A stretch of DNA of 49,321 nt, from assembly GCA_964360175.1 (NCBI GenBank), contig CAYHUI010000004.1, positions 1 through 49,321 on the forward strand. The letters run 5' to 3'. The notes under the pieces are model-generated. The model was not told the origin of the DNA. It did not search any database and saw only the letters and a list, made by a program, of their open reading frames with translations. This document shows positions 1-31,732 of this stretch, one piece after another; position 1 is the stretch's first letter, and the number at the start of each line of letters is the position of its first letter. The translations under genes and the position numbers were made by a program. The stretch is from Candidatus Woesearchaeota archaeon. Its GTDB lineage: Archaea; Nanobdellota; Nanobdellia; SCGC-AAA011-G17; CAYHUI01.

Positions 1-579
1 GCAGTTACTGAATTATTAAATCAAGGAATAAAAGTAGCTCAAATTGAAGACCTAGCTCAAATTGAAGACCTAGAATTTATTGTCAAAAATAATCCTGGAT
101 CTTTAAGAGGAACATACGAAGATTATCCTGCTATAATTCTAAAAAGTCAAGAAGATCCTTATAAGCCAAATAATGAATATTTAATAAAAAGACTTATTAA
201 TTCAATTGAAAGTAGAAAAGATGGAAAAAGGTTTATAAGGGAAATGAAGAATGGTAGTCCTTTACTTATTTTAAACCCATCTTTAGAAGAAGATAAAAAA
301 TCAGGATATGGTTTAAGATTTGAAATAGGAGAAAAAACACAACTTGTTGAGGCTCCTGACTTAAGATACGAAAATGATCGTAAAAGTTTTTTGAGTCTTG
401 GAACAGAAGGTAATGTTCAATTTGACGAAAATAGCAAAAGAAAATTATATATAAGAAAAGGTGGCCTTTCCAGGTTGTACTTGTACAGGGACTTGGGCTT
501 GTCCTCCAGCAGGAACTTCTTGGCGAACTCGGGTTCCGGCGGTCGGGTAGTTGTGGTAAGCGCCGAAGGCGCTTCGTAA
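1..579 (+). CDS. DGR variable (target) protein, 5'-truncated by the window edge; the C-terminus carries the variable repeat
   Basis: Frame 1 is open from base 1 to TAA 577-579, so the listed 244..579 ORF is only the tail of a longer gene. The last ~35 codons (KGGLSRLYLYRDLGLSSSRNFLANSGSGGRVVVV) are the GC-rich VR. VR/TR differences fall on codon positions 1-2 of this frame. Confidence 0.85.
   Translation, partial: AVTELLNQGIKVAQIEDLAQIEDLEFIVKNNPGSLRGTYEDYPAIILKSQEDPYKPNNEYLIKRLINSIESRKDGKRFIREMKNGSPLLILNPSLEEDKKSGYGLRFEIGEKTQLVEAPDLRYENDRKSFLSLGTEGNVQFDENSKRKLYIRKGGLSRLYLYRDLGLSSSRNFLANSGSGGRVVVVSAEGAS
37..72 (+). repeat. Perfect 2 x 18-bp in-frame tandem duplication (gctcaaattgaagaccta; AQIEDL AQIEDL)
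   Basis: Read directly: 37-54 is identical to 55-72. Confidence 0.9.
461..550 (+). repeat. DGR variable repeat (VR)
   Basis: GC-rich 90-nt block. It aligns to 847-954 (minus an 18-nt TR-only block) with 12 mismatches, all opposite adenines of the 847-954 copy. Confidence 0.9.
559..573 (+). promoter_or_regulatory. GC-rich hairpin just 3' of the VR (agcgcc-gaa-ggcgct); candidate DGR homing hairpin within an IMH-like region
   Basis: 6-bp perfect inverted repeat with a 3-nt loop, absent from the corresponding TR flank. The position matches the hairpin/cruciform known downstream of VRs in characterised DGRs. Confidence 0.6.
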
Positions 580-846
580 AATTTTGAAACTTACATTAAA
601 CAAATTAATAAAGAAAAAGAAAGATTCCAAAAAGCAATGGCTTTGTTAAAAAAATAAAAATTTTTAAATGAATTTTTCTAGTGTGTTTTGTCCTAGCCAT
701 AACTATATGGCTGGGCTACATGCCTATTAATAGTACACAAAACCTTTGTGTCATGAAATTCAACCACAACATTAAGTAACTTTATCAAAGAGAAGGTGAA
801 ATATGAAGTGGTGGTGATTATTTTGATTAATAGGCTAAATCTGTCC

Positions 847-954
847 GTGGCCTTTCCAGGTTGTACTTGAACAGGGACTTGGACTTGAACTCCAACAGGA
901 ACAACTTGGCGAACTCGAATTTACAATTAAACGAGACTTCCGACGGTCGAATAG
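847..954 (+). repeat. DGR template repeat (TR)
   Basis: Intergenic GC-rich copy of the VR ending 25 nt upstream of the RT start. It keeps AAC/AAT/GAC codons where the VR has substitutions, and contains an extra 18 nt (921-938). Confidence 0.9.
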
Positions 955-978
955 CTCAGTCAGCTAGGACTTCTTAAA

Positions 979-2052
979 ATGAAAACCTACAAAGACCTTT
1001 ACCCTTTAATTTATGATTTAAGAAACTTACTTCTTGCTTGGAGAAAAGCAAGAAAACATAAAACTGAAAAAGATTATGTTATTGAATTTGAGAAAAATTT
1101 AGAAATTAATTTAATTAAACTACATAAAGAACTAAAAAATTTAAATTATAAACCTAATAAATTAAAAACTTTTATTTTGCGAGACCCAAAAACACGCAAA
1201 ATAAGCAAATCTGACTTTAGAGACAGGGTTGTGCACCACGCTTTATACAATGTAATTGAGCTGATTTTTGATAAAACTTTTATTTATGACTCTTGTGCAA
1301 ACAGAAAAGGAAAAGGTAATTTGTTTGCATTAAAAAGATTTTATTTTTTTATGAGAAAAATTTCAAGAAATGGTTCAGTTTTAGCTAATGATTTTAAAAA
1401 TAGTAATTTTGTTAAAGGCTATTGTTTAAAAGCAGATATAAAACACTATTTTCAAGAAGTTAATCATGAGATTTTAATAAAAATTATCAAAAGAAAAATC
1501 AATGATGAGAAGCTTATATGGTTAATTAAAAAGATACTTAAAAATAATGTTTTAGGAAATGAAAAAGGCAAAGGTATGCCTTTAGGAAATTTGACTTCAC
1601 AATTCTTTGCTAATGTTTATTTAAATGAATTAGATTATTTTATAAAACATAAATTAAAAGCAAAATATTATGTAAGATATGTTGATGATTTTGTTTTGCT
1701 TCATAATTCAAAACAAAAACTTGAATTTTGGAAAGAACAGATTGATAATTTTTTAAAGAAAGAATTGAAAATTGAACTACATCAAGAAAAGTCAAGAATA
1801 ATTCCTCTTTTAAGAGGTGTTGATTTTGTAGGTTTTAAAAATTTTTATTACTTCAAGTTGCTGAGAAAAAGAAATATAAAGAAGATTTTGCTAAAGATAG
1901 AGCAGTATAAAAATAGAGATATGACTTATACTAAACTAACTGAAAGTTTTCAAGGCTGGCAAGCTTATGCTAAATGGGCTAATACTTATGAATTAAGAAA
2001 AAATATTTATAAAAGAATAATTTTACTTAATGATTTTTCCAAGCTTATCTAA
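979..2052 (+). CDS. DGR-type reverse transcriptase
   Basis: 357 aa with FRDRVVHHAL, PLGNLTSQFFANVYLNELD and YVRYVDDFVLL (YxDD) motifs. The N-terminal AWRKARKHKTEKDYVIEFE is typical of DGR RTs. It lies directly downstream of the TR. Confidence 0.9.
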   Translation: MKTYKDLYPLIYDLRNLLLAWRKARKHKTEKDYVIEFEKNLEINLIKLHKELKNLNYKPNKLKTFILRDPKTRKISKSDFRDRVVHHALYNVIELIFDKTFIYDSCANRKGKGNLFALKRFYFFMRKISRNGSVLANDFKNSNFVKGYCLKADIKHYFQEVNHEILIKIIKRKINDEKLIWLIKKILKNNVLGNEKGKGMPLGNLTSQFFANVYLNELDYFIKHKLKAKYYVRYVDDFVLLHNSKQKLEFWKEQIDNFLKKELKIELHQEKSRIIPLLRGVDFVGFKNFYYFKLLRKRNIKKILLKIEQYKNRDMTYTKLTESFQGWQAYAKWANTYELRKNIYKRIILLNDFSKLI

Positions 2053-28732: not shown

Positions 28733-31732
28733 ATGGCAGATTTTAAAAAAATAGAAAAGAAGTGGCAAACTGCTTGGGAAAAATCTAAAATTTTTAAAGT
28801 AAAAGAAGGTAAAAAGGAAAAATATTATATTTTAGAGATGCTTCCTTATCCTTCTGGTTCTGGTTTGCATATGGGTCATGCTAGAAATTATTGCATTGGA
28901 GATGTATTGGCTAGATATAAAAGAATGCAGGGTTTTAATGTTTTATATCCGATGGGTTATGATAGTTTTGGATTGCCAGCTGAAAATGCAGCAATAAAAG
29001 AGAAATCCCATCCTAAAATCTTTACAGAAAATGCAATTAAGAATTTTATAAGACAGCAAAAAAATTTAGGTTTAAGTTATGATTGGGACAGGATATTAGC
29101 TACACATTTACCTGAATATTATAAATGGAATCAATGGTTATTTTTAGAGTTTTTAAAAAGAGGTTTAGTCTATAAGAAAAAAGCTGCTGTAAATTATTGC
29201 AAAAAATGTGATACCGTTTTAGCAAATGAGCAAGTTGTAAATGGTAGATGTTGGAGACATGAAGATCAAGAAGTAGAAATTAAAGAATTAGAACAATGGT
29301 TTTTTAAAATAACTGATTATGCTGAACAGCTTTTAAAAGATTTAGACAGATTATATTGGCCTGAAGATATTAAAATAATGCAGAGAAACTGGATCGGAAA
29401 AAGTGAAGGTACAGAGATTGAATTTGAAATTATAAATTTAGATATTAAAGATGCAGAATTTGTTTTCTTTCACGGATTTAATAGTAATTCTAGAAGCGAT
29501 TTTTGGCCGTGGTTGAAAAAAGAGATTGAAGATCATGGTGGAAAAGTAGTTTTTACTCCAGATTTACCTAATACCTTTGAACCTAATATCGAAAAACAAT
29601 TAGAATTCGTTCTAAAAAATCATAAATTTAATTCAAATACTATAATTATTACTCATTCATTAGGCGGGGTGCTTGCAATGAAATTACTACCTAAACTTAA
29701 TGTAAAAATTAACAAATTAATTATGATAACCCCTCCATTAAAACCTGAATATTTAGATAATAAAAGAAGACCTATATTAGAAGAGTGTTGTGATTTCAAA
29801 TTTGATTTTTCTGCAATTAAGAGAAAAGTGAATAAAATTATAATTTTAGCTGATAAAAATGATCATATCTTACCAATTAATCAACCACGTGAAATAGCAA
29901 AAAATTTATCAGCAGATATTTATATTGGAAATGGAGTTAAATCTCATTTTAATAATTTAATTGAACCAGATGTATTAAATATCTTATTTCAAAAAGCTAA
30001 AGTATTTACAACAAGACCAGATACTTTATTTGGAGTTACTTTCATGGTATTTGCACCAGAGCATCCTAAAGTTTTAGAACTTGTAAAAGAAACACAATAT
30101 GAAAAACAAGTTAAAGATTTTATAAAAAAGGTTTTAATACAAGATAGATTTACAAGAACTTCTGCAGAAAAAGAAAAAGAAGGAATGTTTATAGGAAAAT
30201 ATGCAATCAATCCTATTAATAATGAAAAAATTCCTATATATATTGCTAATTTTGTTGTAATGGATTATGGAACTGGTTTTGTAATGAGTGTTCCAGCTCA
30301 TGATCAAAGAGATTTTGAATTTGCAAAGAAATATAATTTACCTATTAAACAAGTTATTTTATCAGAAAATAAAAAAGAAGTTAAAGATCAAGCTTATTTA
30401 GATAATGGAATTTTAATTAATTCAGGAAAATTTAATGGATTAGATAATATAAAAGCAATTAAAGAAATTACAAAATTCTTAGATCAAAAAAATTTAGGCA
30501 AATTTGTAATACAATATAAATTAAAAGATTGGTTAATTTCTAGACAAAGATATTGGGGAACACCAATTCCTGTTATATATTGTGATAAATGTGGTATTAT
30601 ACAAGTTCCAGAAAAAAAATTACCAATTTTATTACCAGAAAAAGTTAAGTTTGATGTTAAAGGTAATCCATTAGAGAATGTTAAAGAATTTGTAAATGTA
30701 AAATGTTATAAATGTAAATCTAATGCAAGACGTGAAACAGATACAATGGATACTTTTGTTGATTCTTCATGGTATTTTTTAAGATACTGTGATAATAAAA
30801 ATAATAAAAATATATTTAACAGTAAAAAAGTAAATTATTGGATGCCTATTGATCAATATATTGGAGGAAAAGAACATGCAACTGGACATTTAATTTATTT
30901 TAGATTTTTGACTAAGGTTTTAAAAGATATGAATTTAGTAAATTTTGATGAACCAGCTTTAAGATTGTTTAATCAAGGTATGCTACATAAAAATGGTTAT
31001 GTTATGAGTAAAAGTAGAGGTAATGTTGTATCACCAGAAGAAATTTCTGAAAAATATGGTATTGATACAGGTAGATTATTTTTGTTATTCGTTGCAAGCC
31101 CAGATAAAGATATGGAATGGAATGATGAAGGTATAGAAGGAGCTTATCGTTTTATAAACAAAATTTATAATTTGTTTGATAAAAAAACTGTTAAGCATAA
31201 TGAAAGATTAGAAAGTAAAAGAAACAAAATTGTTAAAGAAGTTACTGAAAATATTGAAAGTTTCAGATATAATATATCTATAGTAAAATTAATGGAGTAT
31301 GTTAATTACTTAAATACAAAGGGAGCTTCAAAAGAATGTTTAGAAGTTTTATTAAAATTATTAGCACCATTTACCCCGCATTTAGCAGAAGAATTTTGGC
31401 ACAAAAATCACAGAAGTTTTATTTCATTGGAAAAGTGGCCTTCTTTTGATGTTAAGAAAATTAAAAACGAGTTTGAATTTGAAGATAAGTTAATCGAACA
31501 AACAATTCAAGATATTAGATCTATTTTAAATATTGTTAAAATCAAACCAAAAAAAGGTTATATATATTGCATTCCAAAAGAAAAGAAAATATTTGAAGAC
31601 AACAAAAATTTATTTGAAATAGAATTAAATTTAAAAATTAATATATTTGCAGTTAATGATAAAAATATTTATGATCCTCAAAGTAAAGCAAAAAAAGCTA
31701 AATTAGGTAAAGCTGGTATTTATATAGAATAA
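28733..31732 (+). CDS. leuS: Leucyl-tRNA synthetase, bacterial type, with inserted alpha/beta serine hydrolase domain (aa ~240-422)
   Basis: HIGH (LHMGHARNY), NWIGKSEG, editing-domain TTRPDT and GTGFVMSVPAHDQRDFEFA, KMSKS (VMSKSRGN). The insert FVFFHGFNSNSRSDFW...ITHSLGG...ILADKNDHILP...VKSHFN lies between NWIGKSEGTEIEFEI and KVFTTRPDT. Confidence 0.9.
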   Translation: MADFKKIEKKWQTAWEKSKIFKVKEGKKEKYYILEMLPYPSGSGLHMGHARNYCIGDVLARYKRMQGFNVLYPMGYDSFGLPAENAAIKEKSHPKIFTENAIKNFIRQQKNLGLSYDWDRILATHLPEYYKWNQWLFLEFLKRGLVYKKKAAVNYCKKCDTVLANEQVVNGRCWRHEDQEVEIKELEQWFFKITDYAEQLLKDLDRLYWPEDIKIMQRNWIGKSEGTEIEFEIINLDIKDAEFVFFHGFNSNSRSDFWPWLKKEIEDHGGKVVFTPDLPNTFEPNIEKQLEFVLKNHKFNSNTIIITHSLGGVLAMKLLPKLNVKINKLIMITPPLKPEYLDNKRRPILEECCDFKFDFSAIKRKVNKIIILADKNDHILPINQPREIAKNLSADIYIGNGVKSHFNNLIEPDVLNILFQKAKVFTTRPDTLFGVTFMVFAPEHPKVLELVKETQYEKQVKDFIKKVLIQDRFTRTSAEKEKEGMFIGKYAINPINNEKIPIYIANFVVMDYGTGFVMSVPAHDQRDFEFAKKYNLPIKQVILSENKKEVKDQAYLDNGILINSGKFNGLDNIKAIKEITKFLDQKNLGKFVIQYKLKDWLISRQRYWGTPIPVIYCDKCGIIQVPEKKLPILLPEKVKFDVKGNPLENVKEFVNVKCYKCKSNARRETDTMDTFVDSSWYFLRYCDNKNNKNIFNSKKVNYWMPIDQYIGGKEHATGHLIYFRFLTKVLKDMNLVNFDEPALRLFNQGMLHKNGYVMSKSRGNVVSPEEISEKYGIDTGRLFLLFVASPDKDMEWNDEGIEGAYRFINKIYNLFDKKTVKHNERLESKRNKIVKEVTENIESFRYNISIVKLMEYVNYLNTKGASKECLEVLLKLLAPFTPHLAEEFWHKNHRSFISLEKWPSFDVKKIKNEFEFEDKLIEQTIQDIRSILNIVKIKPKKGYIYCIPKEKKIFEDNKNLFEIELNLKINIFAVNDKNIYDPQSKAKKAKLGKAGIYIE

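Follow-up and report, generated by a model that had tools for sequence, protein, structure and literature searches.

The diversity-generating retroelements (DGRs) described from Nanoarchaeota and other DPANN archaea (PMC4372165, PMC5006420) are the closest known systems to the element discussed here, which lies at the start of a 49,321-nt stretch of a Candidatus Woesearchaeota genome (contig CAYHUI010000004.1; this whole stretch is called the window below). Its template repeat (TR) contains an 18-nt block that is missing from the variable repeat (VR) of the target gene and that a first-pass annotation of the same DNA had set aside when aligning the two repeats. By comparison with related loci this block is conserved, structured and excluded from the VR throughout its clade, and we judge it, with a probability of roughly 0.6, to be a natural mini-intron of the archaeal bulge-helix-bulge (BHB) type in the TR RNA. 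As far as the literature was searched, the conserved, precisely excluded template insert with BHB geometry is new, while the DGR kind itself is already known.

The window shares with the Nanoarchaeota and DPANN elements the cassette of target, TR and reverse transcriptase (RT) gene in an ultra-small archaeon, the restriction of repeat differences to adenines, and an RT of the DGR clade. Also shared are the contrast between the initiation-of-mutagenic-homing sequence (IMH) GGGT and its template counterpart IMH* GAAT (TGGGGT/TGGAAT, PMC4372165), a GRA-loop hairpin within the coding part of the target, with a helical tail of some 46 amino acids after it (PMC4372165), and the occurrence of extra target-only paralogues elsewhere in the genome (as in loci L003/L006 and L008/L010). 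No mention of a TR-internal insert was found in the passages of DGR papers searched, those of PMC4372165 and PMC5006420 included.

The DGR of Bordetella phage BPP-1 (PMC5703328) has in common with the window mutagenic retrohoming from TR to VR through RNA, and an RT, bRT, to which the window RT is homologous (PDB 8ub7, E 7.5e-38 over residues 3-339). It needs the accessory protein Avd and a structured RNA (Sp, Rfam RT-10) between TR and RT, whereas the window has no Avd, carries the RNA motif RT-16 on the 5' side of the TR, and leaves a gap of 24 nt from the end of the TR to the RT start codon. When the self-splicing td intron was engineered into the BPP-1 TR it was spliced out and the spliced RNA was reverse-transcribed, serving as the template (PMC5703328); the same is proposed here as a natural event. 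The BPP-1 intron was an engineered group I ribozyme, whereas the block is natural, 16-22 nt long in the loci compared, and would depend on a protein enzyme of the host.

Archaeal BHB introns sit in tRNA, rRNA and a few mRNAs; the motif at their exon-intron boundaries consists of two 3-nt bulges separated by a 4-bp helix, and EndAs of broad specificity, some of them from DPANN lineages, also cut relaxed forms of it (PMC5829648). The candidate intron shares with them the 4-bp central helix, the bulges on opposite strands, predicted cut sites 2 nt 3' of each helix strand, and the shortness of an intron with its own hairpin, and it comes from a group in which relaxed motifs are tolerated. It differs in sitting in a retroelement template and in having a 3' bulge that faces unpaired bases and a weak outer helix. 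The literature searched held no paper joining 'bulge-helix-bulge' with 'diversity-generating'. The TR/VR indels reported in a survey of DGRs lie mostly beside AAC repeats and were read as RT slippage that adds diversity (PMC5758913); blocks of the window type, in contrast, are conserved and structured, always in the TR, at a fixed site, and are removed exactly.

The repeat pair and the insert in its template

The element is ordered as target gene (with the VR at its 3' end and then a GAA-loop hairpin), RT-16 RNA, TR and RT. The parts of the repeat pair, all on the plus strand, are as follows.

461-550, plus strand: VR, 90 nt aligned to the TR with 12 differences, all opposite TR adenines
541-550, plus strand: IMH-like 3' end of the VR, GGTCGGGTAG, where the homology stops
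847-919, plus strand: 5' part of the TR ("exon 1"), as delimited by the VR/TR alignment
920-937, plus strand: TR-only 18-nt block UUUACAAUUAAACGAGAC, a candidate BHB mini-intron by its absence from the VR, its fold and the homologous blocks in 10 related loci
938-954, plus strand: 3' part of the TR ("exon 2"), with an IMH*-like end
945-954, plus strand: IMH*-like 3' end of the TR, GGTCGAATAG, counterpart of GGTCGGGTAG in the VR

Two GC-rich blocks had drawn the attention of the first-pass annotation, and indeed the VR (59% GC) and TR (46%) stand out against the 26% of the window and form its only long GC-rich direct repeat (repeat family D2). Realignment of the VR with 847-919 plus 938-954 (equivalently written 847-920 plus 939-954) reproduced the reported 90 nt with 12 mismatches, every one at a TR adenine: 12 of the 24 adenines are mismatched, against none of the 66 non-A positions (hypergeometric P of all 12 falling on A, about 1e-8), and the mismatches at non-A template positions that would have spoken against a DGR were looked for and not found. 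The claim that 11 of the 12 changes fall on codon positions 1-2 of the plus-strand open reading frame (ORF) was likewise borne out; the template codons hit are AAC, AAT, GAC and ATA, and the single change at position 3 is CGA to CGG. The two repeats end in GGGT (VR) and GAAT (TR). In about 20 related target-TR-RT loci the repeat pairs are gap-free and the mismatches lie all or nearly all at TR adenines.

The 18-nt block left out of that alignment is real, can be placed at 920-937, 921-938 or 922-939, and is present in L001 and L067, two independent assemblies of the window's population, the latter from another sample of the same aquifer and found through an RT 99% identical to that of the window; the TR with its block is identical in L001. 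The target-based search for related loci had used a 14-sequence subset of a 33-sequence target alignment and the pattern GRVVVVSAE, and therefore did not return the block-bearing subclade, whose targets read GRVVVVGD; for this reason the block seemed at first to be private to the window. The closest RT relatives all carry a TR block and have targets of the GRVVVVGD type, while about 20 TR/VR pairs of the SAEG-type family show no length difference and have a TR without a block. Eight distinct variants of the block have been identified, the window's included, all at one position in the TR, after CTCGAA and before TTC.

TTTACAATTAAACGAGAC, 18 nt: window, L001 and L067
ACCTAAATGGCGAGTC, 16 nt: L068 and L069
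ACCTAAATGGCGAGAC, 16 nt: L079
ACCTAAATGGCGAGCT, 16 nt: L078
ACTTAACAAGCGAGAC, 16 nt: L070
ACTTAATAAGCGAGAC, 16 nt: L075 and L080
ACCTAATGAATTTAGGCGAGAC, 22 nt: L076 and L077
ATTTATAGAAATAAACGAGTC, 21 nt: L081

VR/TR pairs could be recovered in eight cases (the window, L067, L068, L075, L076/L077 as two samples with one VR, L078, L080 and L081), and the block is missing from every VR among them, removal being exact (16, 18, 21 or 22 nt) and never partial; blocks of 16 or 22 nt, if copied, would break the reading frame of the target. In the five registered pairs (window, L068, L078, L075 and L081) the mismatches lie at TR adenines in 62 of 62 cases. The TRs also differ among themselves: each comparison gives 1-16 positions at which neither TR has an A, and there every VR agrees with its own TR (14 of 14 between the window and L081), with no non-A mismatch between VR and own TR in 84 nt. 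Homing from block-bearing TRs therefore continued after the lineages had split, with the block already present. These pairs show the block-bearing TRs to be in use as templates, and the block to be lost with precision at some point between TR DNA and VR DNA.

The window holds no second copy of the block, even with 3 mismatches allowed, and the block consensus gave no match among IMG/VR viral contigs. A fold-back (templated) origin of the block hairpin was considered and rejected: a copy of CTCGAATTT would hold two T's opposite the AA bulge, and the block is without them.

Variation within the population could be followed by comparing the window with L067. Their VRs differ only at 484-485, TA against GG (TAC against GGC), opposite TR A870/A871; the TR positions aligned to the VR are identical, as is the block. 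In this one comparison the VR difference is of the predicted kind, but it is confined to a single codon, the two VRs having every other substituted position in common. L067 also differs at 843, 846 and 847, which lie on the 5' boundary of the repeat or immediately beyond it, where RT-16 meets the TR. An exact search of JGI/ENA metagenome contigs with the invariant 23-mer of the repeat 5' end gave no matches. Altogether 19 differences are spread over 1796 nt, and they are clustered: two in the VR, three at the RT-16/TR junction, and ten in a 50-nt stretch inside the RT gene (1422-1471), this last cluster looking like a recombination or conversion patch.

Several of the related loci have features of their own. 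In L076 (1407-1516) and L077 (20-107) an otherwise adenine-only pair has two neighbouring T-to-G differences (CTTG in the TR, CGGG in the VR), identical in the two samples. L075 (880-3065) has its target, RT-16 and block-bearing TR on the minus strand but an inverted RT ORF on the plus strand, so that TR and RT stand tail to tail; 11 adenine-only changes are still seen in the VR of this locus. Downstream of the RT in L068 (4414-6321) lies an eIF2-gamma-like GTPase split by an intein with a LAGLIDADG domain. In L072-L074 (2419-2503) an RT 72% identical to the window's accompanies a different type of target: the VR ends in GCGTTTGGGGTG and the TR in GCGTTTGGAATG (AvpA-like, RFxGV / TGGGGT), and the TR runs into the RT start codon. 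L072 and L074 have the same TR and different VRs (8 A changes plus 1 C change as against 15 A changes).

Structure of the insert

Folding pairs part of the block with the adjacent "exon" sequence. The central helix is of exactly 4 bp, CUCG (914-917) with CGAG (932-935), and is invariant in the eight variants; its pairing probability is 0.83-0.99 whatever the folding context tried, and in most variants it cannot be extended. In the window it is followed by a 5' bulge A918 A919 (U920), an inner hairpin pairing 920-923 with 928-931, and a 3' bulge A936 C937 (U938). Seven variants have AAA as the 5' bulge, whereas the window has AA(U); CGAG is followed by AC, UC or CU and then by U. An inner helix of 2-5 bp is present in all variants, with pairing kept across sequence change (UUUA/UAAA, CC/GG, CUU/AAG, CCUAA/UUAGG, UUUAU/AUAAA); compensatory changes on both sides are seen at two of its pairs, and 94% of cells are paired, compared with 29-47% when the partners are slid by 1-3 columns.

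Cuts placed 2 nt 3' of each helix strand, as in BHB introns, would remove exactly 920-937. The footprint left in DNA is in keeping with this: in all eight pairs the VR junction is CTCG(NN)^TTC (the caret marks the junction), with the base after the two mutable positions always T, so that the 5' cut would follow CUCGAA and the 3' cut CGAGNN. Random 18-mers set in the same context reach the block geometry in about 0.1-0.4% of trials (1e-3 to 4e-3). The same offsets are found in a tRNA-Pro gene of L045 (TCAGG TTTG GG^T GAAGG ... CCTTC CTGA AT^A CCTGA), and the intron of a tRNA-Gly gene in L072 also fits them.

Both of these tRNA genes (L045 825-954, 130 nt, Pro-UGG; L072 4713-4825, minus strand, 113 nt, Gly-UCC) have long introns at position 37/38 that were found by Rfam and missed by ARAGORN, and in their BHB central helices just three of the four pairs form. 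ARAGORN reported no tRNA introns in the window or in 10 loci.

Proposed mechanism and competing explanations

In the mechanism proposed, a transcript holding RT-16 and the TR would be cut by the host tRNA-splicing endonuclease 2 nt 3' of each CUCG/CGAG strand and its exons joined. Only the spliced template, ...CUCGAA^UUCCGAC... (...GAACUCGAA^UUCCGAC...), would then be copied by the RT, with misincorporation opposite adenines, and the cDNA would replace the VR. From the pairs and folds described above we infer that removal takes place at the RNA level, by splicing endonuclease and ligase. The broader proposition, that a DPANN DGR clade carries a natural BHB mini-intron in its TR, such that host splicing would be needed before the RT could copy it and hypervariation would depend on that splicing, is held a little less firmly, at slightly better than even odds.

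Several points weigh against a BHB mini-intron. In minimum-energy folds the 3' site lies in a 4x4 internal loop (CGAA / NCUU) and not in a clean 3-nt bulge; the outer helix is weak or offset, being either GAA/UUC with a 2-nt bulge or UUGG/CCGA; and the 5' bulge of the window has only 2 nt if U920 pairs with A931. At best, then, the predicted motif would be a relaxed one, HBh'-like and not the strict hBHBh', of a type that only endonucleases with broad specificity cut. With the central and outer helices invariant, the covariation comes down to two inner-helix pairs in seven sequences (eight with L081), and 16 of 500 shuffles reached the covariation score observed. The BHB criteria of the random-insert simulation were chosen after the fold had been seen. 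No gene for EndA or RtcB is present among the ORFs scanned in the 49-kb window; both are presumably encoded elsewhere in the genome, as is general in archaea. Splicing is deduced here from comparison of DNA with DNA, and the VRs of the window and L067 differ at one codon, the 5'-most variable one, which is not easily explained by a single full-length homing event.

Skipping by the RT is the first alternative to be weighed, and an unlikely one. The block would not be spliced; the RT would stall at the structured insert and jump from U938 to A919. The insert is certainly a stable local hairpin, but bypass of a hairpin should delete it from base to base (914-935), whereas the actual deletion keeps CUCGAA and drops the two nucleotides after CGAG, an asymmetric offset that is specific to BHB cleavage; simple hairpin bypass has been rejected on this mismatch between deletion boundaries and hairpin base. 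A U microhomology of 1-2 nt is available at the window junction, yet none exists in variants of the L068 type (...GAA^ACC...GTC^TTC). TR/VR length differences occur in about 7% of DGRs and have been ascribed to template slippage by the RT, but the slippage indels reported adjoin AAC repeats and not conserved structured inserts (PMC5758913). Selection for a structure that promotes jumping could also account for the conservation of the block; the exclusion, whether of 16, 18, 21 or 22 nt, is nevertheless exact in every VR recovered and never takes only part of the block.

Loss at the DNA level is less probable still. The block would be copied into cDNA and then looped out of the cDNA/VR heteroduplex and repaired, or else VRs containing it would be purged by selection. 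Integration of cDNA needs homology on both sides, so that a non-homologous loop in the middle would be tolerable and repairable, and a 16- or 22-nt block would throw the target out of frame and be strongly counter-selected. Neither route accounts for the invariant 4-bp helix with its exonic partner, the fixed 2-nt offsets or the covarying inner hairpin, nor for the maintenance of block structure across lineages whose RTs are only about 72-87% identical. Homing that is lethal to the target would moreover be a liability, and decay of the DGR would be expected; RT, TR and VR are nevertheless intact, and the VRs track their own TRs.

A recent arrival of the block in the TR of a dead DGR, the VR being older than the insertion, would be the simplest reading of the window alone, and both the target stop at 577-579, which cuts off the C-terminal tail and could suggest decay, and the roughly 20 SAEG-type TRs without a block agree with it, but comparison of the block-bearing TR/VR pairs leaves it hardly any credibility and it has been rejected: the block is common to DGRs with RTs 71-76% identical to the window's and TRs up to 16 non-A differences apart, at none of those sites does a VR depart from its own TR, so that the VRs were rewritten long after the block arose, the VRs of the window and L067 differ at a TR-adenine codon though both TRs hold the block, and the RT ORF is intact with all its motifs.

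RNA elements flanking the template

Two further RNA features lie on either side of the block-bearing TR.

692-843, plus strand: RT-16 RNA (Rfam RF03019), 107.2 bits against a gathering score of 50, covering model positions 1-158 of 158
952-966, plus strand: conserved hairpin UAGCU-CAGUC-AGCUA across the TR 3' end, by fold; the family consensus at the same place is GGCTCAGYYAGCTAGG

RT-16 is the only Rfam family that reaches its gathering score in 400-1200, and it ends 3 nt before the TR begins. In all 19 of the TR-bearing related loci scanned it adjoins the TR on its 5' side, and it was found in none of three target-only loci scanned. It is one of 19 "RT" motifs described beside RT genes; in the main text of that paper only RT-10 is tied to a DGR, that of BPP-1, where it lies between TR and RT (PMC5737381), on the opposite side of the TR from RT-16 in the window. 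In this DPANN clade RT-16 probably forms the structured 5' portion of the template RNA of the DGR.

The hairpin at 952-966 is followed by AGGA and then by the ATG of the RT. Because this leaves no room for a spacer like that of BPP-1, the hairpin may be relevant to the priming of cDNA synthesis.

The reverse transcriptase

979-2052, plus strand: DGR RT of 357 amino acids with LGNLTSQ and YVDD; Pfam RVT_1, closest solved relative bRT (8ub7)

The motifs that had been listed for this ORF, FRDRVVHHAL, LGNLTSQFF and YVRYVDDF, are all present in it. Classification of the RT, which the first-pass annotation had called for, gave bRT as the best solved relative, with other RT structures weaker (LtrA at 8e-17, a 'retron-type' RT chain at 3e-16). 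The NCBIfam group II model TIGR04416 scored 144 bits against its cut-off of 300 and the retron St85 RT model 50 against 235, and on these scores the protein would be neither a group II intron RT nor a retron RT. Its LGNLTSQ matches the (I/V/L)GxxxSQ motif in RT domain 4 that defines DGR RTs (PMC3521204). At least 7980 homologues were found, the nearest of which, 65-76% identical, are from DPANN archaea.

The adenine-only repeat pair, the DGR-type RT, a VR at the 3' end of a coding sequence, the IMH/IMH*-like ends and the covarying GAA-loop hairpin together support the DGR interpretation given earlier, and we read the region as an active, Avd-less DGR of the DPANN/Nanoarchaeota kind in an archaeal chromosome; as a DGR it is an ordinary member of that known kind. 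It had also been called complete, which does not hold, as the window begins partway through the target ORF, leaving 192 amino acids against 230-300 in relatives. No Avd-like ORF was found beside or between the DGR parts or elsewhere among the 47 window ORFs scanned, the window beginning inside the target. Avd accompanies about 74% of DGRs and is not universal. Avd-less elements have been described under "architecture A" (PMC5758913).

The target gene

1-579, plus strand: 3' part of the target gene, 192 codons, by ORF and translation
558-574, plus strand: hairpin AAGCGCC-GAA-GGCGCTT with a 7-bp stem and GAA loop, DNA fold -9.5 kcal/mol, inside the coding sequence and just 3' of the VR
577-657, plus strand: stop TAA (577-579) and in-frame tail remnant (580-657); relatives such as L063 have CAA in place of the stop

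The target belongs to a family of DPANN proteins of 230-300 amino acids, with 40 homologues, all hypothetical, from Nanoarchaeota, Pacearchaeota and Woesearchaeota. These share the C-terminal scaffold GLSRLYLxxxLxxxSxxxxLAxSxxxGRVVVVSAEG, in which the x positions are the variable residues. The target has no Pfam or NCBIfam match, and neither the family profile nor the member P0038 has a related chain in the PDB sequence set. Identity with AvpA, the solved Nanoarchaeota variable protein, has been rejected: there is no detectable sequence relationship, and the AvpA motifs HPxxxPFxG and RFxGV are absent from the family consensus, which ends in GRVVVVSAEG. A model was made of the full-length homologue P0007, in place of the window protein (pLDDT 88, pTM 0.80); Foldseek searches with it against PDB and BFVD returned nothing at E <= 0.001 and did not confirm the C-type-lectin fold suggested earlier, the weak, non-significant matches including a tail-collar fibre of a phage (E 0.02) and several C-type lectin domains (E 1.4-5, target-normalised TM 0.40-0.46).

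In relatives the hairpin reads AGCGCC-GAA-GGCGCT or AGTGCC-GAA-GGCACT, a compensatory change of C-G to T-A. The stop at 577-579 is identical in L067. Most family members have a helical tail after the VR, and the 78 nt at 580-657 code for a shorter homologue of it, NFETYIKQINKEKERFQKAMALLKK*. The short tail of the window's target may be tolerated, since several other family members have one.

Extra target copies without a nearby TR or RT occur in L003/L006 (from one metagenome-assembled genome) and L008/L010 (likewise from one); L021, L029, L034 and L064 belong to the same set of loci, some of which hold two tandem target paralogues. Such copies resemble the remote, or "partial", DGR targets known from Nanoarchaeota.

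Genomic setting

By its gene content the window comes from an archaeal chromosome: it encodes GlyRS, Dph2, FtsZ, SepF, Orc1/Cdc6, ribosomal proteins, LeuRS, AlaRS, TFE and aIF5A. Protein-family scans covered 47 ORFs. Within the LeuRS ORF (28733-31732, 999 amino acids) a stretch resembling Ser_hydrolase (PF06821; residues 247-407, E 1.7e-6) lies between the catalytic and editing parts.

Significance for archaeal DGRs

To our knowledge DGRs are the only natural machines for targeted protein hypermutation in prokaryotes, and we know of no experimental study of an archaeal one. The exclusion of the block gives direct genomic evidence on how archaeal DGRs work. In the Bordetella phage DGR an intron-tagging experiment reportedly established the RNA intermediate; a conserved template insert that is absent from rewritten targets is a natural version of that experiment and, if the insert is indeed an intron, would be a natural proof of the RNA intermediate. 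The orphan Rfam motif RT-16 also gains a probable role, as the 5' portion of the RNA of these archaeal DGRs. For the detection of such elements, DGR finders that require a gap-free TR/VR alignment will truncate or miss those that bear a block.

Should the proposal prove true, this would be, as far as the literature searches could tell, the first natural intron in a DGR template. It would also add a new class of substrate for archaeal splicing, with a retroelement template joining tRNA, rRNA and a few mRNAs among the RNAs that undergo BHB processing. DGR activity in these archaea would then depend on a host enzyme, which would be a possible point of control.

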